A stretch of 52,008 nt of DNA from Fimbriimonadia bacterium. GTDB lineage: Bacteria > Armatimonadota > Fimbriimonadia > Fimbriimonadales > JABRVX01. The notes under the pieces were generated by a model. It was not told the origin of the DNA. It did no database searches and saw nothing but the letters and a program-made list of their open reading frames with translations. The translations under genes were made by a program, and so were the position numbers. Below, in pieces: positions 255-15,955 of this stretch (its first letter is position 1; every line of letters starts with the position of its first letter). Where the stretch lies: positions 1-52,008 of the forward strand of contig JBGPGO010000022.1 of NCBI GenBank assembly GCA_041483895.1. The letters are read 5' to 3'.

Positions 255-3074
255 CTACCCGTCTTTGTCGGAATCGTGCCGCTTCCGCTTCGCCTCCAAC
301 AGCCGCGATGACGCCGACCCGGACGGAGTAGGCCTGATTTCGGGCCGACGCTCAGGTCGCGGGATAGATATCGGCCCTCCGCCATCACCCGGCGCCGGCC
401 CCTTCGGAATCCGCTCTTTGGCCTTCCGCAGCCGGTCAACTCGCTCCAGCTGCTCCACCGGCCTCTCGCGCAACGCGGCCTTCCTTCGCCGGAGCCAGAG
501 AACCAGCCGCTGCAACCCTTCGATCAGCGGGATCGCGACCCGGCGCGAAGCCACGTCGAACGGCAGCAGCACCGCCGCGAACAATAGAAAGCTCGGCCAC
601 AGACGCGAAATCGAGAATCCTGGATTGCTGACCGGCCGGGCGGCTTCGGCGGGACCGGACAGCTCCCGCCCGCCCGCCGCACGGCTCACCCGTTCCATGA
701 GCGGACGATTGGCCCGATACCGTTTGTATTCCGGCGGGTAGGGAACCGCGAATCCCGAAGTGCTGATGCGCTTTCCCCCGCCCGCGGCGTCTTCCGAAAC
801 GGTTACAACATACGATCCCAACTCCGCCGCATCGAACGAACCCTCGTAGGCCCCCGGACTTCGCTGGCTGAGGTTAATCGGGCGCGACTCGCCGCTCGGC
901 GTCGTGATCCGCACCTCGGCGCCAAGGGAATTGATGGGGTTGCCGACCGAGTCATACGCCTTGAGGTCTAGCACTGCCTTCGACCCATCGTGCCGAGTGG
1001 TGACCTGATACTGATTGGTGGTCGCCCGGCGGGAGATGGCCCGCGTAGCCTGCGCCCAAAACGGTCCAAACCCGTCCCAGCCGATCCACTGCCGGGCCCA
1101 TCGCGGCTGCGCGTCGGAAGTAAAGGCGAGACTTGTGCCCAGCCCATACTGCCAGGTCGCGAGAAGCGGGTCGTCCTTCCCCGTCTTCATATCCACGTGC
1201 GACAACGGTTTGGAATCTGTTAGGCAGTAGGCATAGAGCGCCGGCATAGCTGGAATTCCGCGCAAGATGTCCGACCCGGCGTACACCTTGGGCAGAAAGG
1301 CCCCCTCTTCGATGGCCGACCGGGACATGACCGATGCGTCTTGGGTGAAGATGGCCGGAAGCTGCCCCGCCCGTTTTGCCAAATAGAATCGGCCGCCGCC
1401 CGCCGCCGCAAGACCGCGCAGAAACAAGACATCTTTCCCGTCGCCGATTGAAACGACGGAAACCGTGATCCGGTTGCGCCGCATCCGTTGGGCCACCTCG
1501 ATGCAGCCGTCCTGATCGTCGCAGTCGTTCCCATCGGCGAGAAGAATGAAATGGCGAACTTTGGACGGCTCCGCGTTCAGCACCTCCTCGGCAAAATCCA
1601 TGGAGGGCTTCACATAGATGCCGCCGCCGCCCACGTCCAACTTGCGAATCTGGCTGATGATGGATGCCTTGTCGCTCGCCACCTGCATTCTTGCGACGAA
1701 CTCTATGCCGTCCGTGCTTCCCGCGACGCCCACGCGATCGATGGGCGACATCAACTGAACGGTCGACTCGGCGGCCTTCGCCGCCAGCCGGATTTTGGGG
1801 AAGCCATCCTCAATCATCCCCATGCTTCCCGATGCATCCGCGACGATAAGGATGGAAGTTGACGGGAAGGTTTTGCGTTGCCGAATGTTCAGATCGACCG
1901 GCAGCACATCCGCAATCGGCGTCGCATAGTAACCTCCGGGGAGGAACGAATTCTCGCCGCCTATCATCGCATAGCCGACGCCGCTGTCCCGCACCGCCGC
2001 CTGGACCAGCTTCATCTGCCGTTCGGTCATCGTCGCCGCATTGATGTCGTTGAAAAGCACAGCGTCGTAGTTTTGAAGCTGCTCCGGCCGGACCGGCACC
2101 CCTTCGGGTCCATACAAATCTGCCTGCAGGCCCTGTTCACGAAGGGCGCTGGCCAACTGGCTGCGAGAAGGATCGCTCTGGAGAATTAAGACCTTGGGCT
2201 TGCCTCGAACGACGACGAACCCCGCGCCAACATTGTTGCGATTGTCGGTATCTTGGTTTACAAGCAGCGTGGCTCGGTATCGATGAAAGCCCGGCTCGTC
2301 CATCGTATCGGTGGCAACGATGGCGTTCTTCCCGCGCGTCAAGTGCACACCCAGCTTCTTAACCGTCACACTGTCCCTGTCGATCGTCAGAATTCCATCC
2401 GTCTCGACCGTAGAATCCACAACGACACGAATATCGATCGGTTGGCCCACGCGGGCGTCGCTCGGTACCTCGGTGGCGAGCACCGCCACCTCCGCCGCGC
2501 GATCCTTTAGTCCCAGCGGCACGTGGTCAATCTGAATGTTCTCTCCCGACGCCACCGTTGCGGCCTCCACTGCATCGCCGAGAGTCTCATTGCCGTCGGA
2601 CACCATGACTATCCGCCTCGCCTTGCCGTCTGGAAACGACGCGCTGGCCAATCGGATGGCTCCCGCCAAGTTGGTGCCCGAACCATCAACCACGGAAAGA
2701 ATTCGATTCAGTCGCCGCGCGTTGCCGGGCGCGACGTCGATCACGGAGCTTCGGCCAAACGCGACCACCGCAGCCTCATCTTTCGACCCCAGCGATTTGA
2801 GCGCCTCATCGATGAACTGTTCGCCCGCCTTTCTGTCAACATCGCTGATGCTGTCCGAGCGGTCGAGCAGAAAGATCGTGCAGATGCCCTCGTTGGGCCG
2901 ATGAGCCTCCGGTCCCGCCAAGGCGACGACAATGGCCGACATCAAAAGGCCTCGCAGCGTGAAGGACACCCATTTCCGGCTGCGCATCATGCCGTGCACG
3001 TGACGAAAACTGATCCACAAGCCGACGGCGACAGGCAAGAGGAGAAGCAGATACAGAGGGTCGGAAAAGCGCAC
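255..3074 (-). CDS. Membrane protein with two VWA domains and a glutamine-amidotransferase-like domain
   Basis: N-terminal BatA-like TMs, MIDAS motifs DRSDS and DASGS, central GATase-like region (GGENSF), C-terminal TM. Confidence 0.85.
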   Translation of the reverse strand: MRFSDPLYLLLLLPVAVGLWISFRHVHGMMRSRKWVSFTLRGLLMSAIVVALAGPEAHRPNEGICTIFLLDRSDSISDVDRKAGEQFIDEALKSLGSKDEAAVVAFGRSSVIDVAPGNARRLNRILSVVDGSGTNLAGAIRLASASFPDGKARRIVMVSDGNETLGDAVEAATVASGENIQIDHVPLGLKDRAAEVAVLATEVPSDARVGQPIDIRVVVDSTVETDGILTIDRDSVTVKKLGVHLTRGKNAIVATDTMDEPGFHRYRATLLVNQDTDNRNNVGAGFVVVRGKPKVLILQSDPSRSQLASALREQGLQADLYGPEGVPVRPEQLQNYDAVLFNDINAATMTERQMKLVQAAVRDSGVGYAMIGGENSFLPGGYYATPIADVLPVDLNIRQRKTFPSTSILIVADASGSMGMIEDGFPKIRLAAKAAESTVQLMSPIDRVGVAGSTDGIEFVARMQVASDKASIISQIRKLDVGGGGIYVKPSMDFAEEVLNAEPSKVRHFILLADGNDCDDQDGCIEVAQRMRRNRITVSVVSIGDGKDVLFLRGLAAAGGGRFYLAKRAGQLPAIFTQDASVMSRSAIEEGAFLPKVYAGSDILRGIPAMPALYAYCLTDSKPLSHVDMKTGKDDPLLATWQYGLGTSLAFTSDAQPRWARQWIGWDGFGPFWAQATRAISRRATTNQYQVTTRHDGSKAVLDLKAYDSVGNPINSLGAEVRITTPSGESRPINLSQRSPGAYEGSFDAAELGSYVVTVSEDAAGGGKRISTSGFAVPYPPEYKRYRANRPLMERVSRAAGGRELSGPAEAARPVSNPGFSISRLWPSFLLFAAVLLPFDVASRRVAIPLIEGLQRLVLWLRRRKAALRERPVEQLERVDRLRKAKERIPKGPAPGDGGGPISIPRPERRPEIRPTPSGSASSRLLEAKRKRHDSDKDG

Positions 3075-4913
3075 CTACGATCGCCTCGCAAACAGCCACC
3101 ACTCGCCTGCCAGGACGAGCAGCGCAAGAAGGAGAAGCGGCCTCCAAAAATCCGTAATCCGCAGAGAAGTGCCGCTGGCCTTGGCCTCACCGGACCCCAA
3201 CTTCAGCTTGCTGACGGGCGCGATGTTGGATTCGGTGTCGCTCAAAAGGCTGGCGTACATGCGCTTCGTCTCCTTGCCGACCGTCAACCTATACTCACCC
3301 GCGATGCGCACGTCCCGCAATGTGTAGCTGCCGTCGGTGGGACGGATGGTCCGTTTGCCGCCGTTCGGCATGGCCAGGGTTGCGGGGCTGTCGTCTTTCG
3401 CGGCGACGGTGTATGTCTTCCCGGTCTGGATCGCGACGATGCGCGCGGTCTGCTTGGCCGCTAGGAACTCCAGCGCGTTGGCGATGAAAATCGGAAAGCC
3501 GACCTGAAGCGGGAAATCGGAATCGAGCGGTTTGAAGGCGACGTATATCTGCCGCTTCCTGCCCTCCGCGGCGACGATCAGCGGCCCCTCTTTCGTCTCG
3601 GCCAGGACCTGCCCCGTCGCCTTCGCCTGGACTTTTTGCATTGAGTCAATGTACACATCGCGCATATCCACGTATCGCATCAGTGGATGCTGCTCGCTGG
3701 AGACAAACTTGGGATTCTTCGCGCTGCCATTTGCGCTAACCGGGGAGGCAGGGCCCGCCACGCCGAAGGCCAAAACTCCGCGGGCCTTGGTCGGCTCTTC
3801 TGGGACGCCGTCAAAGACGACAACGTCGTACTTGCCCGCGCTGGGGCCGTTTTCTCGCTCCGTGTCCGGCAGCTTGGCCGCACGGTCCAGCGTTACGCGG
3901 GGGTCGAGCGTCATCGCCCGCTCGATAAACGGGTCCTCGCCGCCCACGAGCAGCACCCGGATCGAGGCGTTGGGATCGGCAAGGGCTGCGGCATAGTTAT
4001 CAGATTTCAACAGATCGTCACCCTCAAACTTGGCCTCGATCACCTGCGTCCCTGTCGGCACGGCGTCGGTCCAGCCGCCATCGCTTTTCGGGTTCAAGAC
4101 AACGCGGCGCGAGTTGAACAGCTTGCTGTCCCCGAAGAGCGACAACATGCCGTCCGCCGACTTCTTGCCGTAGTTTCGCAGGCCGCAAAATACCTGCCGG
4201 CCTTCCGACGTCTCGGCCGCGCCCAACGCGATGATGGCGACGTTTTCGGATGACGTTCCCAGTTGGCGAAAAACCAACCGCGCTTTTCCGGCAGAAAAAT
4301 CATTCACTTCGCCAAACGCTCCATCGGATAGCAACAGTATCCGGCCCCGCTCCTCCTGCCCGACCAGCGCAGCCGCCAACCTAAGAGCCTCCCCCACATC
4401 GTTTTGCGCGTCGCTGGGAGCGAGGCTGTCCAAGGCGGTCCTCATCCGGCCGGAATCGTTGGAGAGTGGAAAAACGACGCGGGGCGTGGGACCGGCTTCG
4501 ATCAAACTGATCCGGTCGCTGGGCCGAGCGGAATCGATCAGATTCCGGCAGATGCGCAGCGCCTCCTGATATCGGGACCCGGGCAGGTCTGTCGCGTTCA
4601 TGCTGGCGGAAGTATCGAGGACGATGACGGTGATCTCGCCCGGCAGCCCTTTCTGCTGTGTCTGGGGCCGCGCCAGCGCGACGACCAAAAATATCAGCGC
4701 CAGAATTTGGAGCACGAGGAGCCAGTTGAAACGCAGGCGCTGGAACAGCGAATTCGCGCGCACCTCGGTTGTCAGGTTGGGCCATAGGAAGGTGGCCGGA
4801 ACGGTCAGGTCCCTTCGCCGCATCTTCAGCAGATAGAGCAGCACAATCGTCCCGCCAAGCGGCAGCAGCCACAACAGCATGCCGGGGTTCTGAAAGCTCA
4901 AGAGGTCACCCAT
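3075..4913 (-). CDS. BatA/VWA domain-containing membrane protein
   Basis: SFQNPGMLLWLLPL..LLYLLK BatA-like N-terminus, MIDAS DTSASM, C-terminal EWWLF TM. Start is probably ATG 4913 or TTG 4901 rather than the ORF-track 5021. Confidence 0.85.
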   Translation of the reverse strand: MGDLLSFQNPGMLLWLLPLGGTIVLLYLLKMRRRDLTVPATFLWPNLTTEVRANSLFQRLRFNWLLVLQILALIFLVVALARPQTQQKGLPGEITVIVLDTSASMNATDLPGSRYQEALRICRNLIDSARPSDRISLIEAGPTPRVVFPLSNDSGRMRTALDSLAPSDAQNDVGEALRLAAALVGQEERGRILLLSDGAFGEVNDFSAGKARLVFRQLGTSSENVAIIALGAAETSEGRQVFCGLRNYGKKSADGMLSLFGDSKLFNSRRVVLNPKSDGGWTDAVPTGTQVIEAKFEGDDLLKSDNYAAALADPNASIRVLLVGGEDPFIERAMTLDPRVTLDRAAKLPDTERENGPSAGKYDVVVFDGVPEEPTKARGVLAFGVAGPASPVSANGSAKNPKFVSSEQHPLMRYVDMRDVYIDSMQKVQAKATGQVLAETKEGPLIVAAEGRKRQIYVAFKPLDSDFPLQVGFPIFIANALEFLAAKQTARIVAIQTGKTYTVAAKDDSPATLAMPNGGKRTIRPTDGSYTLRDVRIAGEYRLTVGKETKRMYASLLSDTESNIAPVSKLKLGSGEAKASGTSLRITDFWRPLLLLALLVLAGEWWLFARRS

Positions 4914-5773
4914 CCCCCGCGCTTGAGCCCGTCGCGCAAAAACGTCTCCAATGAATCGCCGTTGGTCGTCCGCAAATACCGTCCGCCGACCCGACGGCAC
5001 TCCTCCGCAATCGACTGGCAATGTTCCGCCAACCTCGATCGATACTCCCTGAGCGCATGCCCCGTCGCCGTGATCTCGACCATCGACTCGGTCTCCACAT
5101 CCAGCAGCCGAAGGTCCCCCTCGATGTCCGGATCAAGCTCTTCCCTGCTCAAAATCTGAACGAACCCAACCTCATGGCCGCGTCCCCCCAACAACCGAAT
5201 CGCTGCCCCGATGGAAGGGTCCAATCCATCACTGATCACCACCGCCAGCCCCGGCCGCGCGGTGCTCACAGCAAACTCCCGTAGAGTCTCGGCGATGCCG
5301 CGTTTCGAATCCGCCACCGCCTCGCTCGCCCATGCGGCCAGCCGGTGATAGCCGACACGGCCCCGCAGCGCCGCCATCGGCTCCTGGCGCCGACCCAGCG
5401 CCCGAGGAAAAGCCGCATCCTGCCCGCACAAAGATATGTAGCCGACCGCGCAGGCAATCCGCCGCGCCACCTCGAACTTGGTCGGCTCCCCAAACCCCAT
5501 CGATAGGCTGCAATCCAAAAGCAGATGAGCCGCCAAATCCTCTTCGTCCTGGTAGGTCTTGATGACCGGGCTCTGCAAGCGGGCGAGCACATTCCAATCC
5601 AGATGGCGCAGGTCGTCGCCATCCACATAATCGCGGTAGTCGGCGAACTCGATGCTGATGCCTTTGCGCCGGGTCAGCCGCTCTCCACGCACCCGGCCCG
5701 CCATGGTCTTGCGTGGAGCGAGGCGCAGTCCTTCCAGCAATCGGAAATGCGGGGCCTCCAAAACAAAGGACAT
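4898..5773 (-). CDS. DUF58 domain protein (MoxR partner)
   Basis: EFADYRDYVDGDDLRHLDWN motif, LDCSLSM. Confidence 0.9.
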   Translation of the reverse strand: MSFVLEAPHFRLLEGLRLAPRKTMAGRVRGERLTRRKGISIEFADYRDYVDGDDLRHLDWNVLARLQSPVIKTYQDEEDLAAHLLLDCSLSMGFGEPTKFEVARRIACAVGYISLCGQDAAFPRALGRRQEPMAALRGRVGYHRLAAWASEAVADSKRGIAETLREFAVSTARPGLAVVISDGLDPSIGAAIRLLGGRGHEVGFVQILSREELDPDIEGDLRLLDVETESMVEITATGHALREYRSRLAEHCQSIAEECRRVGGRYLRTTNGDSLETFLRDGLKRGGWVTS

Positions 5774-5776
5774 CCG

Positions 5777-6781
5777 CTACACCTGGATCGGGTCTTTGTC
5801 GCGGCTATCGACGAACGAGAGCACCTCATCGATCACTTTGTCCGGCGTCTGCCCATCCGCCTCGGCCTCGAAGTTCAGCAGCACGCGGTGTCGCAGAGCG
5901 GGTTTGGCGGCCCGTCGGAGATCGTCTTTCGACACATTGTAGCGTCCCGCCAGGAGCGCGAACACTTTGCCGGCAGTGATGATAGCCTGCGCGCCGCGCG
6001 GACTCGATCCGAATCGGATGTAGCGGTTCGCGATCGGCGCGCCTCCCTCCGTCTCCGGATGGGTCCCGACCACCATTGATAGGCCATAGTCCAGCACGTT
6101 TGCGGCAATCGGAACCTCTCGCACGATCCTGCGCATCTGCAAAATATCGTCCTTGTGCGCGACCGGCTTGATATCCGCCGCCAAGGTTCCCGTCGTACGG
6201 TTCACGATATCCGCCAGCTCCTCTTTGCTCGGATAGGTCACCAGCAATTTGAGCATGAACCGATCCAGCTGGGCCTCCGGCAGCGGGTAGGTGCCTTCCT
6301 GCTCAATGGGGTTCTGCGTCGCCATCACCAAGAAGGGCTCGTCCAGTTCGTGCCGCTTTCCGCCGGCGGTGACGGACAGTTCCTGCATCGCCTCCAGCGT
6401 GGCGGACTGGGTCTTTGGCGTCGCCCGGTTGATCTCGTCCGCCAGGACGATGTTGGCGAAGATCGGCCCCCGGCGAAACTCGAAACCGCGAGAACCGGAT
6501 TCAGAATGGGACAGAATGTTCGTTCCTGTCACGTCGGCCGGCATCAGGTCCGGCGTAAACTGAATGCGGCTGAAGGCGAGATCGACCGATGAAGAAAGCG
6601 ATCGCACAAGCAGGGTTTTCCCGAGTCCCGGCACGCCTTCCAAAAGAATATGGCCACCGGATGCCAAGCCGACCAATACGCCTTCGACGATCTCCTCTTG
6701 CCCGACAATCGCTTTGGCTATCTCCGACCGAATCGAGTTGAATCGCTCACGGAACCATGCCGCGGCTTCCTCCCCATGCAC
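5777..6781 (-). CDS. MoxR-family AAA+ ATPase
   Basis: GVPGLGKT Walker A, RIQFTPDLMPAD, LADEINRA, TQNPIEQEGTYPLPEAQLDRF. Confidence 0.95.
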   Translation of the reverse strand: MHGEEAAAWFRERFNSIRSEIAKAIVGQEEIVEGVLVGLASGGHILLEGVPGLGKTLLVRSLSSSVDLAFSRIQFTPDLMPADVTGTNILSHSESGSRGFEFRRGPIFANIVLADEINRATPKTQSATLEAMQELSVTAGGKRHELDEPFLVMATQNPIEQEGTYPLPEAQLDRFMLKLLVTYPSKEELADIVNRTTGTLAADIKPVAHKDDILQMRRIVREVPIAANVLDYGLSMVVGTHPETEGGAPIANRYIRFGSSPRGAQAIITAGKVFALLAGRYNVSKDDLRRAAKPALRHRVLLNFEAEADGQTPDKVIDEVLSFVDSRDKDPIQV

Positions 6782-8619
6782 TATTTGCCACTCTCCAATG
6801 AGTCGAAGTAGTCCTTCACGCGCTTCTGTTGGTCCTTCGGAATCTCGTCCCGCTTGACCGCCTTCTCCGCCCGTTTCTTGTACTTCGGCAATAGGTTCAC
6901 ATACGGCGTTTTTGATCGCTGTCCCAGCCCGCTCGGTCCCCGAATCTCCACGTACGTCTCCGATCCGCGATCCGATCTCTGTCCAATCGCGATGCTGGGC
7001 GTCGCCGTCCCCTTGCTATCCTGAGGATCCTTACTCGTGTTGATCCGTCCCGTGTTTGCGAAGAACATATCCTTGCTAGGCGCTCCCGGCCCGCTGTTCA
7101 GCCCCATCGCGGACAGCAAACTGCTGCCCAAACCGCAGCCCTCTCAGCCACCCTTTGCCTCTTTCATGGATTCCCGGAGCTTCTTGAGGAATTCGTCCAT
7201 CGCCTTTTGATCCTTGAGCTGCTTTGCCAGGTCTTCCAACTGCTTCATCATCTCCTTGACCTGGTCCGCGGTCAGATTCGGCATGCCCTGCTTGCCGCTT
7301 TGATTGAGCTGCTTCATCTGCCGCATCATCTCGCGGATCTTCTGCATTTCGGGGCTGTTGGCCATCCGCTTCAGCATCTCTTGCGCCTGCTGCGATAGCT
7401 TCAGGTCCTTGAGCTCTTTCTCCAACTTCTCCAGCTGCTTGGCAAGCTCTTCCTGCTGCTCCTTGCTCAATTGCGAGCCTTTCCCGCTCATACCCAAGGA
7501 TGGCAGCTTCTCCGCCAGCTTTTGCAACTGGTCCTGGAGCTTTTTGGACAACGCCTGCATTCCCGCAAGCTGCTCTTCCATCTGCTTTTTCTGGGCGTCA
7601 GACATGCCCTGCTGAGTCAACTGGTTGCGAAGGTTTTGGATGCGCTGGGCCATCTCCTCCAATTTGCCCTGGAGCTGCTTCCGGGCCTGCAGGTTGTCCG
7701 CCGCCGCCTGATTTCCCTGCGTGAGCTGATTCTTCAGCTTGTTGATCTGATTTTGCAGGTCCTGGCTTTTCGCGTCGCGCTCGTCCGGCGTCATCTGGAG
7801 CATCTGCGGGTCGATATCCTTCAGCCCCGCCTCGTCGAGCTTGGCCTGCTCCAGCTTGGATAGCGCGGTCTCGGCCTGCAAGAGCTGCTGGTCCGAGTTC
7901 GCAAATCGCTGCTTTGCCAACTCCTCCGCCTGCTTGGCCAGCTCGTTGGCCTTCGCGAGCGCCTCTTCCTTCGGCACCCGTCCTTTTTCCAATTCCTGAT
8001 GTAGCTGTTGAAGCTGCTTGGCGAGCTCCTTTTCCTGCTGCGTCGCCTCGTCTTTTCGGACCTTCTCCAGCAGCGGCTTGGCGACGCGCTCCACCTCCGG
8101 CGCCGCCTGCTGCATGTCCATGCGGTCCATCTTCTTTTGGCCGTTCATCAGAATCGGCGAGTTGCCGAGCAGGAACAACGCGGCGGCAACAATGGAGAGC
8201 AGAACCAGCGCGCCGTGCCACCGGCTGAAGTGAAACGGAAAGGCGACCGGCGGCTTCACATCGCCCAATCGCGCAAGGGCGTCGTCCACCAGCGCCTCGT
8301 CGAACTCACCCGATTCCGATGCCCGCTCGAACGCGGTGCCGATCCGGTTCTCCAACCCAGCCCGCCGATCGATGCTGTCGGCCAGGTGTGCCGATGTCAG
8401 CCGCCGGAACAACCCAAACAGAAACCCACCGATCAGGCCAACCCCGACAGGGATCAGAAGCTGCCACCACTCGGCATAGCGGATCCGGAAGAAATCCAGC
8501 GCGGCCCAAATGAGGCTAAGGCAGGACCCAGCCGCCCCGCCGATCGCCAGCCAGCGCCAGGCCGATAGGAACCGGACCCGCCGCTCGAAACCCCGCATCT
8601 TCTGTGATAGGCCGTTCAT
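6781..8619 (-). CDS. Membrane-anchored Q/K-rich coiled-coil protein, one gene read through an in-frame TGA at 7144-7146 (putative selenocysteine, UxxC); otherwise two ORFs or a nonsense allele
   Basis: Minus strand reads GGT GGC TGA GAG GGC TGC GGT TTG, so the 491-aa and 116-aa ORFs are in frame (612 aa fused). N-terminal TMs, long coiled coil, C-terminal IP..QKRVKDYF tail. Confidence 0.7.
7111..7129 (-). promoter_or_regulatory. Candidate bacterial SECIS hairpin
   Basis: mRNA GGGCAGCA-GUU-UGCUGUCC: 8-bp stem, apical loop starting with G, 22 nt between the UGA and the loop. Confidence 0.55.
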
Positions 8620-10199
8620 CGGTACACTTCCACTCTCTCAGATATCCTACTATAATTCATTTCGGCCAGCCACGCAACCAAACCCCCAACAATCGCCATG
8701 CCTATCCCTATTACGGCCACATTCGCGTCCACGTCCCCGTGGGTCATGGGCGTGAGCACATAAAAGCTCCAAAATGGCGAATGCGCCCCCGACGAGAAGT
8801 ACATGGCGGCGTCGGAAGCCACGATAACTGGCCACGGAAGTACAATGGTGGCGAGGACGATTACAAAGTGCAGAGCCCGCGCAGCGCTAAGCTGCAGCCG
8901 GTAGGACGAGACCAACCTGCCTGCGGACCAGTATAGGACCAGAAATCCCAGCGTCCAAACCGCGCACTCCAAAAACACATCCGATGCCAGGCCGCTCCCC
9001 CGCCCATCGATCCACCACCCGCGTATCAACAGCGTCCCAAACACCACCGCCCATAGCAAGATGATATACGGCAGCGCCCCAGACGCCGTGCCCCGCAGAA
9101 CATTGCGGAATCGAAAGACCCCATCTTGCCGAAATCGCCGGTCCGCGTCCCGCGAATGGCAGGTGACATGCGGGATGAACCAGACGAACAGAATCAGCAT
9201 CCACGCCCCGATCATCCCGTACACCTTCCAGATGTCCAGCCCCGCGCGAGTGCCCGGTATCGCCGAAAAGGACGGCGCCAAGAGATAGGCGGTCAGTCCC
9301 ATATAGATCAGGCCATGCACGCGCAGGCTCTTCGTGTCCACCGCATCGTAGGGAGACATCGACGACGCTGCTCCCAAAAGCAGCAGTTTCGAGATGAGCG
9401 CAGCAACCAGCAAGACGATAAACGCATTTGACACGTTCACTCCGAATAGGACGGTGTACGTGGGCGCGGCGAACACGGCCATGAACGGATTGAGCGCTAT
9501 CCCGAACGGCGCTTCTGCCGGCTGCGGCGTGCCGTTAAAAATGGTCCTCCCAATCATCGGTCCGGCGGATGCAAACCCGATCGACACCGTGATAATCATG
9601 TAGAAGGCGATGATGAAGTAGCTCCACGCGATGGCGGAGATAGGCTTCGGCGCCATCGCGCTGCATACAAGTCCGATTGCCGAGAAGATCAGACCATGCG
9701 CCGATAGCAGAAGATACAGATAGGCGACATCGACCCACGTCGCGCCACCAAGCAGCACGCAGGTGGCCGTGACCGGCAGCGACAAAATCAACAGCATCCA
9801 CGTGTACCGATAGCTGCTCAACAATTTGCCAACCAAATAAGACCGATACTCCATCGGTGTGGTGAAAACCAGATCCAGCGACCTCCGCAGCCTTTCGGAG
9901 ACAATACTGGTAGCCGTAAGCGCCGGCGATATCAGCGATACCACAATGGCCAGAATAATCGCGATGGTGGTGTAATAGACCGTCATGGAGGACTGTATGG
10001 AGGCAAGGGAACCGGTTCCGGACTGAGTGGCTGTCGCGTACCCTATCATCGAAATGCTGATGAAGATGAACAGATAGACCGCCCACAGCCACATCGCCTT
10101 GCTGCCACGCAACTGCGCGCGATAATCACGCACCGCCGTGGGGTTGCCGACGTAGGCCTCATATGTCCCGCGCAGCCACCGTCCAACCATCGCGCTCAT
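8616..10199 (-). CDS. ABC-2-type transporter permease-like membrane protein
   Basis: NPTAVRDYRAQLRG, SIVSERLRRSLDLV..GKLL motif, many TMs. Confidence 0.85.
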   Translation of the reverse strand: MSAMVGRWLRGTYEAYVGNPTAVRDYRAQLRGSKAMWLWAVYLFIFISISMIGYATATQSGTGSLASIQSSMTVYYTTIAIILAIVVSLISPALTATSIVSERLRRSLDLVFTTPMEYRSYLVGKLLSSYRYTWMLLILSLPVTATCVLLGGATWVDVAYLYLLLSAHGLIFSAIGLVCSAMAPKPISAIAWSYFIIAFYMIITVSIGFASAGPMIGRTIFNGTPQPAEAPFGIALNPFMAVFAAPTYTVLFGVNVSNAFIVLLVAALISKLLLLGAASSMSPYDAVDTKSLRVHGLIYMGLTAYLLAPSFSAIPGTRAGLDIWKVYGMIGAWMLILFVWFIPHVTCHSRDADRRFRQDGVFRFRNVLRGTASGALPYIILLWAVVFGTLLIRGWWIDGRGSGLASDVFLECAVWTLGFLVLYWSAGRLVSSYRLQLSAARALHFVIVLATIVLPWPVIVASDAAMYFSSGAHSPFWSFYVLTPMTHGDVDANVAVIGIGMAIVGGLVAWLAEMNYSRISERVEVYR

Positions 10200-11128
10200 C
10201 AGTTGATCGCCCCCGTGGTGATCGATAGGAACACGTCCTCCAAATCCACTTCTTCCTCGCGGAAATCCACTACCCGCAATCCGTCCCTTATCAGCGCCGC
10301 AAGCAGTTCCGCCTGATCCTCCAATTCGCCCGAGAACTCAACTTTCACGGAATGCTCATTGAGCGGTTCCGCCGAGAGCACATGCTCCCGATTCTGAAGA
10401 TGAGAAGCGACCGCGCCCGATTCCGCGAGCGCGCGAATGACGAGAACTCTCGACTTCTGGATGCCCTTCACGATCTCCGATACGGGTCCCATGGCCAGCA
10501 TCTTGCCCTGCTCGATAATCCCCACGGTGTTGCAAAAGTCCGCCAACTCCGGCAAAATGTGGGACGAGACGATCACGATTTTCCCCATTCGTCCAAGCTC
10601 CGCGATCAGCTCTTTCAGCTCCGCCCGCGCGCGCGGATCCAGGCCGCTCGCCGGCTCGTCCAACAGCAGGAGCGAAGGGTCATGGACCAGGCATTTGGCC
10701 AAACAAAGTCGCTGCTGCATGCCGCGAGAAAGCGACTGCACGTATGCATCCCGTTTTGCCGTGAGGTCCGTCAGCTCCAACACGTTGCCGATGATCTGTG
10801 GCCGCTGCATGCGGGGGATCTTATACGCCGACGCGAAAAAATCCAGATACTCCCACACTTTGATATCATCATACAGGCCAAAGAAATCCGGCATATATCC
10901 GATCTGCCGCCGCACATCCATCTGATTGCGATGTATATCCGCGCCGTTGATGGTAGCAGTGCCGGATGTCGGTTCGAGCAGGGTGGCCACCATCTTGATG
11001 GTGGTAGTTTTGCCCGCGCCATTCGGGCCGATAAATCCGAACACATCACCAGGCTGCAAGCGGAAGCTGAGATCGTGCACGGCGACCAGATTGCCATACA
11101 CTTTGCGTAGGTGTTTAACTTCCAGCAT
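10199..11128 (-). CDS. ABC transporter ATP-binding protein
   Basis: GPNGAGKTT, LSRGMQQR signature, LLLDEPASGLDP. Confidence 0.95.
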   Translation of the reverse strand: MLEVKHLRKVYGNLVAVHDLSFRLQPGDVFGFIGPNGAGKTTTIKMVATLLEPTSGTATINGADIHRNQMDVRRQIGYMPDFFGLYDDIKVWEYLDFFASAYKIPRMQRPQIIGNVLELTDLTAKRDAYVQSLSRGMQQRLCLAKCLVHDPSLLLLDEPASGLDPRARAELKELIAELGRMGKIVIVSSHILPELADFCNTVGIIEQGKMLAMGPVSEIVKGIQKSRVLVIRALAESGAVASHLQNREHVLSAEPLNEHSVKVEFSGELEDQAELLAALIRDGLRVVDFREEEVDLEDVFLSITTGAIN

Positions 11129-12026
11129 CGTGGGACCTCGGGATAAATGCGGCTTCGGATTCCGGGAAGTGAAGGGTCTTTTCCGCCCATATCAGGAAGA
11201 TGGCGACAAAACACAGATATACCAATGCTTGCGGAATGCCATGCCACGCCGATAACACATTGTCCGCAGGATTAGACGAATTATACATATTATAGGTGTA
11301 TTGGTCCTGCTCAATCGCGGTGTACGGATGAAGATACATGAATGGCGCGGCCGCGTTTGCATCCGGGATCAGCATTCCCAAAATCGCCGGCGCGACGACA
11401 AGGCCGAGGATCAGAAACGCGTAGGTGACTGCGAGCGCGGTAATGCTCTTGCGACTGCGCGACGATGCCAACAGCGTAAATGCTACCAATGCCAGCCCGT
11501 AGGCGACGCACACCACTTCGACCCGGATCATCTCCTCTAGCTTGGTCGGCAATGGAGGCGGTTCAGGTTGGTCAGGCTGCGAACCGTATGTAGTCGGTAT
11601 TTGGGCTATATCGTATGAGTATCCTGTCTGCGCCATCATCATCGGAACCGCCATCAATGCGCATATCGCCCCGACAGCAGCCGCGCCGGAGAGAAACTTC
11701 CCAATCACAATCTGCGCCTTCGTGATGGGAGCGCAGATCAGCATCTCCCAACTCCGCCGCTCCCGCTCGCCCGCGACGGACCCTTGCATAATCGTGGGAA
11801 CAACAAAGCTCAGCAAAACGAACAGAAAAATCCCCAGCCCCTTGATCGTCACTCCGGTATCGAAAACGGAAACGAGCGCAAGAATGAGCAGATAGATCAA
11901 GATGACAATGATCAGCGTCGCGACATTGAGCACGCTTGTCTGGCTGATGCCGAGGAAGCGCCGGATGAACCGCTTCATCTCGATCAGCATCGGGTTCTCG
12001 CTCACAAGGTCCTGGAAAACGCTCAT
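11115..12026 (-). CDS. ABC-2-type transporter permease
   Basis: SVAGERERRSWEML..IVIGKF motif, about 6 TMs. Confidence 0.85.
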   Translation of the reverse strand: MSVFQDLVSENPMLIEMKRFIRRFLGISQTSVLNVATLIIVILIYLLILALVSVFDTGVTIKGLGIFLFVLLSFVVPTIMQGSVAGERERRSWEMLICAPITKAQIVIGKFLSGAAAVGAICALMAVPMMMAQTGYSYDIAQIPTTYGSQPDQPEPPPLPTKLEEMIRVEVVCVAYGLALVAFTLLASSRSRKSITALAVTYAFLILGLVVAPAILGMLIPDANAAAPFMYLHPYTAIEQDQYTYNMYNSSNPADNVLSAWHGIPQALVYLCFVAIFLIWAEKTLHFPESEAAFIPRSHDAGS

Positions 12027-13909
12027 TGATTGCCTCGATCACTCAGAAAATAGACAAGGTCAACATTGGAGCCGTCGGTAATCCCACGCCCAATCTGCGG
12101 TCCCGGCCGAAATCCTACGAGCTTCCCGCGAATGGCAATCGCATTGAGGGGAACGGTCTGGCCGGCTTCACCCTCATGGTTGTCTTGCTCCCCCGTTGCA
12201 ATTCGTCCGTTCACTTTGATTCTCTTGCCCGGCGGCAGATCGCCGAGTTTCACGACCGCCTGGGTGCCAATGCTTGCATCGTTGATCGTGAACGGACTAT
12301 TGTTTATGATCGTGCCGGAGAGCCGCGCCGAACTGCTGGTAATGTACTTCATCCGCAGCCCCTCTGTTCGGATCATCTCCTTCAACGGAATCCGCTGGCT
12401 GAACCAAAACTCCCGAAAACTGAGGTTGGAAACCGGCATCTCCGGAACCAATATCTCACCCACATCCACCGCATCGAATTTCGGCTGGTTCTGACCGCCG
12501 CGATAACGGCGATAGGGCGTGTACAAGGTGGTGTCTTCGGTCATGCTGCGCGCTTGCAGCGAATCCACGCCGGAAAGCTGCAAATCGTACCGGCCCCCGC
12601 GCGGGAAAAACAGTTGCGATCGCCCTATGAAGTATGCATCCTCGACCCTTGGATCGACAAGCAATATCCCAGTGGTCTCCGTTGAGAGATCGAACGAATA
12701 GAGATTGCCCGACAGCGCGAACAGCAGCGCAGCAAATCCGACGCTGATGATCGGCGCGGTGATCCAGGCCTTTTCTCCCGCGCGAAATTTTCGCAAGATC
12801 AAAAAATTCACGGGGACGACCACTACCAAATAGCCGAGCAGGATTAGAAACACCTTGCCGGAAGACGGCATCTCGACGTTGAACGGACCCTCCCCCTGAT
12901 TCATGACATCCGTGACCGACTGCAAAAGCTGCGTCCGTTTTCGCAGTCCGGACTCCGTTTGCAGGAAATTGGCAAACAGTTTCCGCCGGCCCTTCCATGT
13001 ATCGAGCGGCGGCTCGAACGGGTTGAAAGCCAAATACGAGACGGTGCCCAAGCCGACGCTGTGCTGCACGATCAGCGGCCCGCCGGAGGCGAACAGAACC
13101 TTCGCGTCCCGCGTCGGATCCCCAATCAAAACCGACATCGGCTTGGCAGGGGGCGCGGTGCCGCCGAACACAGCGAAAGAGGCCGGGGCAATCATCGTCT
13201 GCGGCTTGACGTTCTGAATCGGCAAAATGGGCCGCCATCTGGGATCGGCAAGGATCGGCGACGAAGCCCCGCCGACAAACACCAAATGCCCGCCCGAAAG
13301 CAGCCAGGTCTTGAGAGCCGAAATCTCTGTGTCCATGAGCCGTTCCGATCCCTCCCCAAAGATGACCGCCGAAATGCCCTCATACGCGGACGGGCGGTCG
13401 GGCAGCATGCCGGGCCGCCCGTACAGGTCGGAACCCGCCGGCCGCTCCTCGTTGCCTTGCCTCCGGAAAAAGGTCATCAGTCCCGACGTGTCGCTGATCA
13501 GAAGAAACGATTTGGCCCCATACTCCGACATGCCGTAGGTGGGTGGCAGCCGCTTTTGCGCGTTGCCGTTCGATGTGTTCAGCGTCACCGTTAGGTCGGA
13601 CATCATGAGGGCTTCGCCGGGCGTGTAGGCGATGATCCGCTTGTTGGCCCCGCGAGGCAGGTCCACCGGGTAGGTCATCTCAAAGTCGGAGCCCTCGACG
13701 CGCACAACCCCGCGGGCGTTCCCCCCGGAATTCTGGATATCGATGGCTAGCGGATAGGTGCCGCCCATCGGACTGGCGCCCTCGAACAGCGGCTGGACGC
13801 TCAGCGTAAAGTCAGCGTCGGACGCAAAACCGGCGCAGGCAAGCCCAATCCCCACCGCGAACCCCGCAATAGCTCTCAATGTACTTACCGATACACCTCT
13901 CCCCAGCAA
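12023..13909 (-). CDS. Exported/membrane protein with GATase-like domain, first gene of the MoxR-ABC operon
   Basis: Signal-peptide-like N-terminus, WLLSGGHLVFVGG, TM pair (YLVVVVPVNF..AWITAPIIS). Exact start uncertain. Confidence 0.7.
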   Translation of the reverse strand: MLGRGVSVSTLRAIAGFAVGIGLACAGFASDADFTLSVQPLFEGASPMGGTYPLAIDIQNSGGNARGVVRVEGSDFEMTYPVDLPRGANKRIIAYTPGEALMMSDLTVTLNTSNGNAQKRLPPTYGMSEYGAKSFLLISDTSGLMTFFRRQGNEERPAGSDLYGRPGMLPDRPSAYEGISAVIFGEGSERLMDTEISALKTWLLSGGHLVFVGGASSPILADPRWRPILPIQNVKPQTMIAPASFAVFGGTAPPAKPMSVLIGDPTRDAKVLFASGGPLIVQHSVGLGTVSYLAFNPFEPPLDTWKGRRKLFANFLQTESGLRKRTQLLQSVTDVMNQGEGPFNVEMPSSGKVFLILLGYLVVVVPVNFLILRKFRAGEKAWITAPIISVGFAALLFALSGNLYSFDLSTETTGILLVDPRVEDAYFIGRSQLFFPRGGRYDLQLSGVDSLQARSMTEDTTLYTPYRRYRGGQNQPKFDAVDVGEILVPEMPVSNLSFREFWFSQRIPLKEMIRTEGLRMKYITSSSARLSGTIINNSPFTINDASIGTQAVVKLGDLPPGKRIKVNGRIATGEQDNHEGEAGQTVPLNAIAIRGKLVGFRPGPQIGRGITDGSNVDLVYFLSDRGNQ

Positions 13910-14545: not shown

Positions 14546-15955
14546 CTAGTCCCTTACCTGTGCGGACAAATAGTCTCGTGCCGCTTGGCCTTGAACCACG
14601 TCGAAATCAACTGGCCAGTCCCCGTAAGCGCCGTTCTTGTCCGGCTCCACGCTATCGATCTTAGTAGCGCCTGTTTTCCGGTTTTGCGAGAACCAATGAA
14701 ATATTACGTCTTCTGGTTCGATCTCGCCTTTTGCAACGAGCGTCTGGATGCCCTGCAGAATCAGCGGGCTGTGCGTTTCGATCACAATTCTTGCCCCCCG
14801 CTTTGCCGCATCCCGCATCACCTGCGCCAAGCCATATTGCGCTCTGGGGTGGAGATGAATTTCCGGTTGCTCGATAAAGACCAACTGACCAGGCTCTGCC
14901 GCGACCAAAGCGATTGCGATTGGCAGCGCCTGCGATACACCGAATCCTGCGTAAGCAATATTAATTAGGTCGTCTCCGCCATTGCTTCTTATCGGGCTGT
15001 GAATTCGTCCGACCTGCAACTCAACTTGTGTGTCCGTAATTCGTTTTGCATGAATTGTCCAGTTGATATGCATCTGTTGGAGCGAGTGCCGCAGCGCATG
15101 GAGGTTCTCTTGGTCGCGCTCTGACCAATCGGTTACGAAACTTGCCACATAGTGCTCGAAGCTGCCGGGGAATGACCTGCCGGTACCCGCAACATTGTAC
15201 GCGAGCTCCGGATTGCCGCGGATGCCGCGAATGTAAATTACCCTAGAGAGCGCAGCGACAAACAGATGGATTGGCAATTTTTCCCACCAAAGCAGGGTCC
15301 TGTGAACAGCTTCCACTCTTTGCTTCCTGCCAGCCTCTCCTAGGCCAACAGCAGTGTTTGCGACTGGAACCTGGGTAAGCGAGAGGAAGCACCGGTCCGT
15401 TTTCACCTCTGTTGTCCATCCGGGTTCCTTGCTTTGTTCAGCAAATATATCTGGCCCAAGCCATTGTCGCATTAGGGAGCTAGGATCGCTATTGGGGGTT
15501 AACCGTATCTCCTCGAGATTCACCTTTGCGACCTGTAGAGAAACCTCAAACCCGCGGCTTCGACGGCCAAGACGATAATCAATAGCTATCGAAGGTCCGC
15601 CGATATCCGTGGATGATGATTCCAGACGCATGCCGCAGCAAAACGTATCTGGGACCCGATCGATGACAATTCTGGACAGCAAGTCCGTTGACCTTGAAAA
15701 CTTCACGTCCGGGCCATCGAGTTTCAGGACCCCCGGATCATATTCTGATAACAGCGTCTGCCGCTGCAACAAGAGTGGCTGTATCATGCTGGACTTGCCA
15801 GAACTATTCGCCCCAACCAAAATGGTAATTGGCTTTACATCAATCGTTCTCTCATCTGCAATTGACTTGAAGCCATGCACAGTTATACTTTGGATGGCAG
15901 GTATCTGTTCAGAGCGGTCCTTCTTTGCATCTTGCTGTGAAGTTCGTCGGGGCAT
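14546..15955 (-). CDS. AAA/ABC-type ATPase (AAA_15/AAA_21, DUF3696-like C-terminus)
   Basis: GFKSI, GANSSGKSS Walker A, GFGVSQALP signature, IEQPEIHLHPRAQ, IETHS. Confidence 0.85.
   Translation of the reverse strand: MPRRTSQQDAKKDRSEQIPAIQSITVHGFKSIADERTIDVKPITILVGANSSGKSSMIQPLLLQRQTLLSEYDPGVLKLDGPDVKFSRSTDLLSRIVIDRVPDTFCCGMRLESSSTDIGGPSIAIDYRLGRRSRGFEVSLQVAKVNLEEIRLTPNSDPSSLMRQWLGPDIFAEQSKEPGWTTEVKTDRCFLSLTQVPVANTAVGLGEAGRKQRVEAVHRTLLWWEKLPIHLFVAALSRVIYIRGIRGNPELAYNVAGTGRSFPGSFEHYVASFVTDWSERDQENLHALRHSLQQMHINWTIHAKRITDTQVELQVGRIHSPIRSNGGDDLINIAYAGFGVSQALPIAIALVAAEPGQLVFIEQPEIHLHPRAQYGLAQVMRDAAKRGARIVIETHSPLILQGIQTLVAKGEIEPEDVIFHWFSQNRKTGATKIDSVEPDKNGAYGDWPVDFDVVQGQAARDYLSAQVRD

Follow-up and report, generated by a model that had tools for sequence, protein, structure and literature searches.

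The question raised by this locus is whether one TGA codon ends a gene or lies inside it. The DNA analysed here (the window) is a stretch of 52,008 nucleotides (nt) from a Fimbriimonadia bacterium of the phylum Armatimonadota (GCA_041483895.1, contig JBGPGO010000022.1). On its minus strand, an open reading frame (ORF) of 491 amino acids (aa; 7144-8619) and one of 116 aa (6781-7131) share one frame, and their sole separator is the TGA at 7146-7144. Read through, they give a product of 612 aa, ...KEAKGG-U-EG-C-GLGSS..., in which U492 is the presumed selenocysteine (Sec; 7144..7146) and C495 (7135..7137), at UxxC spacing, its presumed partner. The whole gene would then occupy 6781..8619, with 612 codons and a TAG stop at 6781-6783, an extent consistent with the full-length single-protein orthologues described below. 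A sequence-only reading of the window had noticed the two ORFs and the TGA between them, with which the ORF coordinates and the translation agree, and had proposed a 612-aa selenoprotein with a hairpin resembling a selenocysteine insertion sequence (SECIS); this proposal is now supported by orthologues, covariation and the co-occurrence with SelA. On the whole, comparison of the sequences indicates that TGA 7144-7146 is very probably a Sec codon, and the gene the founding example of an undescribed, phylum-wide selenoprotein family in a Bat-type operon.

Based on the read-through product, we then present an overall view of the homologues. A word-index protein search with residues 380-612 as query finds single proteins of 411-575 aa covering both halves, 6 of the 8 having Cys where the window has TGA, and the orthologues are likewise single proteins of 520-620 aa that span both halves, which is the pattern (continuous homologues with Cys or TGA at the site) that the sequence-only reading had predicted. 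For the window's class, a profile search of 228 genomes matched 129 of them, with 23 matches flagged as having one TGA; 42 loci were taken for examination and their stops placed with a hidden Markov model (the class tallies of the profile and of SelA include one unpublished genome, G013, which none of the conclusions depends on). The results show TGA at a G-G-[TG]-U site in 21 loci, Cys in 15, and neither (K, G, M or a gap) in 6, the flagged matches G134 and G111 having no TGA at the site within the envelope and being counted as non-Sec. When 401 genomes sampled from the phylum are searched with the profile, many more matches are flagged with TGA, and 19 of 20 loci retrieved have it at the site, while G497 has none within the envelope and is counted as non-Sec; these phylum counts leave out several matches with one TGA that end near model position 400-460 (e.g. 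G240, G253, G290 and G324). The verified TGA orthologues total 40 (21 from the class of the window and 19 from other parts of the phylum), and these share the same TGA across many genera with diverged flanks. TAA or TAG, whose use by relatives had been named as a sign against the proposal, occurs at the Sec site in none of the relatives examined.

The first alternative to be weighed is that the TGA is a true stop, with a 491-aa stalk protein, a separately initiated tail of ~116 aa, and a hairpin serving coupling or mRNA stability. Gene callers indeed split the gene so (P0002 is the 491-aa part, and pieces of 92-132 aa past the site are present in the protein library), and the TTG and CTG codons frequent in the Gly/Leu-rich stretch after the TGA would offer starts for the tail. 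However, the frame is kept across both parts in all 40 verified TGA alleles, and Cys stands in the place of the TGA within fused single ORFs. Moreover, 7 of the 19 phylum TGA alleles, all belonging to one genus, carry a second in-frame TGA 15 codons on (U-x14-U, in the motif GGT-U-[EK]GSGRGHRPHFGFG-U; loci L057-L063 of genomes G393, G409, G299, G369, G353, G361 and G377), and each UGA of these double-Sec genes has a separate hairpin, which is hard to reconcile with separate genes. In two sister genomes, G287 and G430, the first of these sites is Cys and only the second is Sec, and another group in the phylum has U-x9-C in ...ALGQCG. Downstream of the TGA, the frame is open as far as the conserved ...RVKxYFxSL end in every allele, the ratio of nonsynonymous to synonymous substitution (dN/dS) is 0.05-0.47 in Sec-Sec pairs, and for the G145/G144 pair the proportions of synonymous and nonsynonymous differences (pS and pN) are 0.90 and 0.06, respectively; judged from these comparisons, selection on the post-TGA frame is purifying. 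With a profile of the tail, 670 cluster representatives match at E <= 1e-3, mostly of 520-600 aa, and several matches are pieces of 92-132 aa starting just past the Sec site, as gene callers produce when they split TGA alleles. A true stop also has against it that the hairpin's loop and spacing fit a SelB-type model and that the TGA alleles track SelA, both detailed below, and altogether we regard it as very unlikely.

The putative bacterial SECIS-type hairpin is located at 7111..7129 on the minus strand. Its arms are GGGCAGCA (7129-7122) and TGCTGTCC (7118-7111) around a GTT loop (7121-7119), or GGGCAGCA/GUU/UGCUGUCC as RNA, and it has 8 bp, 22 nt from the TGA to the loop, G as the first base of the loop, and a folding energy (dG) of -12.8 kcal/mol; the 8-bp stem and the loop opening with G 22 nt past the UGA had been described before and are confirmed on the sequence. 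In the portion of PMC13188914 used here, the model of bacterial SECIS (bSECIS) elements has a loop of 3-9 nt with G within its two opening positions and a stem of 4-16 bp (section 5), together with a spacing of 16-37 nt and dG <= -7.5 (Zhang and Gladyshev, as summarised there). The window's hairpin passes all four criteria, and so does the lowest-energy hairpin in 19 of the 21 class alleles, the two exceptions keeping the aligned hairpin, which in G145 is not the lowest-energy one and in G135 has -7.4. In an alignment of the class-level TGA alleles (A2; 21 sequences, each running from 9 nt ahead of the TGA to 60 nt past it), RNAalifold, unaided, predicts exactly one helix, columns 27-34 with 38-45, and this is the same hairpin. 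Compensatory double changes are found in 7 of its 8 pairs, pairing is standard in 92.9% of cells compared with 33-54% in controls whose 3' arm is shifted by 1-3 columns, and the covariation score is matched by none of 500 shuffles. Nearly every sequence has GGUCU, (A)GUU(U) or GUC as its loop. Within 60 nt, the best hairpin of the 21 Sec alleles keeps one offset and has a mean of -11.7 kcal/mol, and that of the 15 Cys alleles lies at scattered offsets with a mean of -8.1 kcal/mol (Mann-Whitney p = 4e-5, which is overstated as the sequences are related). The expectation that the hairpin would be conserved in TGA alleles only is thus borne out, since it covaries there and is weaker and unpositioned in Cys alleles. 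In Rfam, the search gives a sub-threshold chance match alone (DUF3800-VI, 17.4 against a threshold of 35 bits).

As for the Sec machinery, the window's genome has SelA (448.8 bits), a tRNA-SeC with anticodon tca on contig C5, and SelD (364.4 bits), whose catalytic loop VACAG-U-ASKLG itself contains Sec; the SelD gene lies at C8:71482-72399 (locus L002), and a comparable hairpin, with GUG as loop, follows its UGA at 33 nt. The genome therefore needs Sec decoding. At the same time TGA serves it as an ordinary stop, because the stop of the next gene upstream is a TGA overlapping the ATG of the selenoprotein gene (8619-8617). In the class, SelA is detected in 20 of 21 genomes with a TGA allele versus 39 of 69 with a full-length non-TGA allele (Fisher p = 6e-4, kinship uncorrected). 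In the phylum set it is detected in 19 of 19 genomes with a TGA allele, and the 18 genomes without one give 5 strong and 2 weak partial SelA matches. Overall, SelA-bearing genomes hold 39 of the 40 TGA alleles, and Cys alleles occur with and without SelA. SelB and tRNA-Sec would then recode the UGA, aided by the hairpin 14-32 nt downstream.

Several observations weigh against the Sec reading. SelB is not found in the window's assembly with TIGR00475, PF09106, PF09107 or tblastn using the SelB of the nearest relative, the best matches being EF-Tu and IF2, and a hunt for selB by synteny at the counterpart, in the window's genome (G000), of a G001 neighbour gene shows no conserved neighbourhood. 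Hence the machinery that the sequence-only reading had expected is there as regards selA, selC and a Sec-containing selD, and selB is the part not found in the assembly; the assembly, in 43 contigs, has a completeness of 95%, SelB scores above the cut-off in all 5 relatives tested, one of them of the same family, and the missing selB is probably an assembly gap. One genome with a TGA allele, G053 (92% complete, 440 contigs), shows no SelA. In the phylum set, the literal bSECIS criteria hold for just 17 of 26 UGAs: 6 fail on spacing alone (15 instead of 16 nt), all being the first UGA of double-Sec genes with the hairpin GGGGCGG-GGUCA-CCGCCCC, whose 15 nt to the loop is one under the published range, and 3 have a homologous weaker stem, CGCACU-N5-AGUGCG. 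The 6 of 42 class-level orthologues with neither Sec nor Cys at the site show that the residue is dispensable for the basic role of the protein. The predicted tail, with an overall predicted local distance difference test (pLDDT) score of 62, gives no fold-based function. Finally, the G060 copy (locus L018) has an extra in-frame TAA in the coiled-coil region besides the Sec TGA, and may be a pseudogene or reflect a sequencing error.

The missing SelB would also suit a second alternative, in which the UGA is read through without Sec by a near-cognate Trp or Cys tRNA and the hairpin acts as a read-through stimulator, the more so as the identity of the inserted residue is deduced from comparison. 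However, 39 of 40 TGA alleles reside in SelA genomes whereas Cys alleles do with and without SelA, all 5 relatives tested have SelB, the non-TGA alleles align Cys, the usual counterpart of Sec, and the genome's own SelD needs Sec decoding, so that this alternative has little chance of being right. That TGC or TGT turned into TGA in the window's genome only, as a pseudogene or assembly error, would need one base change in a Cys codon and could appeal to low read depth and the extra TAA in the G060 copy, but contigs of three separately filed sediment runs (X1, X2 and X3) cover TGA 7144-7146 with 0 differences (at a low depth of 3.8-4.3, with the window itself perhaps derived from one of these runs), which is also the outcome of the read check once suggested for this codon, the same TGA recurs in the 40 orthologues with diverged flanks, and the downstream frame is under purifying selection, leaving this explanation next to no room.

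We now turn to the protein predicted by the Sec reading. Its layout is three hydrophobic segments, a coiled-coil-like stretch of ~330 residues, a Gly-rich hinge and a tail of ~120 residues. The N-terminal membrane anchor (8164..8550, minus strand as all features below) was located by hydropathy scan and alignment, with segments at ~24-40, 54-70 and 136-152 and a conserved loop LADSIDRRAGLE. The low-complexity region that follows (7150..8142, residues ~160-490) has no Cys and weakly matches coiled-coil proteins solely, and the conserved C-terminal two-helix tail (…AEKA…IPK…KRVKDYFDSL) lies at 6793..6903 (alignment A3). An AlphaFold2 (AF2) model of the tail from 39 sequences has helices at 81-97 and 103-117 of the 120-aa tail, with the rest at low confidence and the Gly-rich Sec region at pLDDT ~50. 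The sequence-only reading had described a cytosolic coiled coil without other Cys; C495 is indeed the only Cys outside the membrane segments, C33 sitting in the first of them (TM1), but the cytosolic location is unsupported. Actually, throughout the family 15 residues of the N-terminus hold 4-7 K/R and the first loop is a short one with few K/R, so that with three segments the positive-inside rule would place the long C-terminal part outside the cytoplasm, a placement that the sequences suggest weakly, the K/R counts being alike on both sides of TM3. Complex prediction for MoxR (alignment A4) and the tail (A3) gives a score of 0.00, evidence for neither side. For this protein Pfam has no family at E <= 0.01, and NCBIfam at E <= 0.1 shows chance coiled-coil matches of 11-12 bits alone. 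A Cys-form homologue (P0004) matches unnamed clusters of ~580 aa without a Pfam family, labelled mostly Planctomycetota, which we take as a lead only.

It is of interest to discuss the hinge residue across the family. Sec and Cys alleles intermingle when the 42 class-level proteins are placed on a quickly built maximum-likelihood tree, on which well-supported branches force at least 4 Sec/Cys switches and parsimony gives 7. At class level, 20 of 21 Sec alleles, and 10 of the 15 with Cys at the site, have a partner Cys no more than 8 residues away, and its position varies among CxxU, CxxxU, Cx5U, UxxC and Ux4-6C. The U-x-x-C motif emphasised by the sequence-only reading is therefore real here, as U492/C495, but not a family feature: the spacing is limited to the window's genome and G141, and elsewhere the partner Cys shifts or is missing. 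Of 41 orthologues scanned, only L035, which has two more, carries Cys of the soluble part anywhere but at the hinge. A CxxC-type thiol/selenol oxidoreductase, in which a constant gap of two residues lies within a folded, thioredoxin-like active site, was considered as a candidate and rejected, the spacing being variable or the partner absent and the region Gly-rich with pLDDT ~50. We infer that, in this MoxR/DUF58/VWA system of the Bat type, the hinge provides a site for redox chemistry or for a metal. The hinge residue would be chemically active rather than structural, because it is the sole conserved Cys/Sec of the soluble part, because lineages with the Sec trait have repeatedly upgraded it to Sec, and because it is doubled in one lineage beside two His. 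That the partner keeps no constant distance and that the surroundings are flexible and rich in Gly speaks against a rigid catalytic site of the CxxC type, and for a reversible selenylsulfide, a diselenide or metal ligation. Where an allele has just one Cys or Sec, pairing could occur only between chains, which a hypothetical parallel coiled-coil dimer anchored in one membrane would allow.

The gene lies in an operon of the Bat type, in which genes of MoxR (AAA_3), DUF58 and BatA-N/VWA are adjacent, and it shows start/stop overlaps with its neighbours on both sides. Downstream are a MoxR AAA+ ATPase (AAA_3 and lid; 5777..6781), whose start overlaps the selenoprotein stop and which is found downstream in 29 of 30 orthologous loci, and then, identified by domain search, a DUF58 protein (4898..5773), a membrane protein with BatA-N and VWA (3075..5021), and a protein with two VWA and a GATase1-like domain (255..3074). 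Upstream are ABC-2 type transporter genes (8616..12026) for a 303-aa permease, a 309-aa ATPase and a 527-aa permease-like protein, the last of which ends in the TGA stop mentioned above; this 527-aa protein (8616-10199) has weak ABC2_membrane_3 and GldF matches only, and its gene is directly upstream in 27 of 30 loci. In addition, a 628-aa ORF without Pfam or NCBIfam match (12023-13909) heads the ABC/MoxR gene string, and a 469-aa AAA_15/AAA_21 (OLD/AbiEii-like) ATPase is encoded upstream of the operon (14546-15955).

Putting these features together, the product would have three membrane segments, a coiled-coil-like stalk of ~330 residues, a Gly-rich hinge with Sec492 and Cys495, and a short helical tail, and would belong, as a fixed component, to a MoxR/DUF58/BatA-VWA operon of the Bat type that is coupled to an ABC-2 transporter. 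The hinge Sec/Cys would be redox-active or metal-binding, pairing with a nearby Cys, a second Sec, or the same residue of a second chain, and this pairing might set the state of the tail relative to the stalk. When selenium is scarce, termination at the UGA would yield a tail-less product of 491 aa. As to Bat systems, the sections of PMC3557215 used here report that a Bacteroides bat mutant is partly rescued by reducing agents and that Bat proteins were proposed to supply or use periplasmic reducing power, and also that Leptospira data do not support a direct protective role of Bat, the function being termed elusive. For Borrelia, the part of PMC5700661 used here describes a BatA-like protein with three inner-membrane helices and a VWA domain toward the periplasm. 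By analogy, we hypothesise that a selenol/thiol hinge in a partner protein fits a redox-sensing role for Bat systems. A bolder proposal is that the Sec/Cys hinge is the missing redox element of the Bat 'aerotolerance' systems, with a reversible selenylsulfide or diselenide gating MoxR/DUF58/VWA: a selenol would end an envelope-spanning stalk, a bond within or between chains would respond to oxidants or metal, and lineages with the Sec trait would upgrade the sensor Cys to Sec, some of them to two Sec. We put this forward tentatively and consider it rather unlikely as it stands.

If the Sec reading holds, the bacterial selenoproteome gains a family of unusual build, with Sec in the flexible hinge of a membrane-anchored coiled coil and with single- and double-Sec forms, and the annotation can be corrected in TGA-bearing genomes, where the gene is now split into two ORF calls. 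It also offers a first candidate redox or metal-reactive residue for the poorly understood Bat/MoxR-DUF58-VWA operons, and hence a concrete experimental handle on systems whose function is called elusive in the part of PMC3557215 cited above.

Regarding novelty, the literature search under selenoprotein or selenocysteine with Armatimonadetes, Armatimonadota or MoxR finds nothing on this gene, and the words Armatimonad, coiled, von Willebrand and MoxR are all absent from the main text of both deep-Sep (PMC12013277) and BSepDB (PMC13326102). Among the 119 families catalogued in Table 1 of a 2026 review (PMC13188914), as far as that table describes them, none is coiled-coil, MoxR- or VWA-associated, or resembles the selenoprotein here, and it matches no Pfam, TIGRFAM or NCBIfam model of catalogued families in a scan that left out a few cd- or PTHR-defined ones. 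Compared with lineage-restricted hypothetical families (deep-Sep DG/DW/DF and NCBIfam NF04xxxx), which are likewise recognised by Sec/Cys pairs and SECIS alone, P0001 differs in matching none of their models. In comparison with Bat operons, the operon here has the same MoxR AAA_3, DUF58, BatA-N with VWA and further VWA protein in a conserved gene order; unlike them, it has an ABC-2 transporter joined to it, and the stalk protein stands in the place of the BatC, BatD and BatE of described operons (PMC3557215 and PMC5700661, in the sections used here, which report no selenoprotein or Cys-pair component). Like known bacterial selenoproteins with intragenic bSECIS elements, the family has a UGA that aligns with Cys of homologues, a hairpin directly 3' of it, and co-occurring SelA, SelD and tRNA-Sec, and its hairpins share the 3-5 nt loop opening with G then U/G, the spacing of 18-22 nt and dG < -7.5. 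Unlike them, it has no thioredoxin-like or other known fold around Sec, which instead lies in a hinge, flexible and rich in Gly, within a long coiled-coil membrane protein, and its partner Cys has no fixed spacing (CxxU, UxxC, Ux4-9C, Cx5U, Ux14U or none). On this comparative evidence, the family is a genuine and previously uncatalogued selenoprotein family, with an unusual architecture and context.

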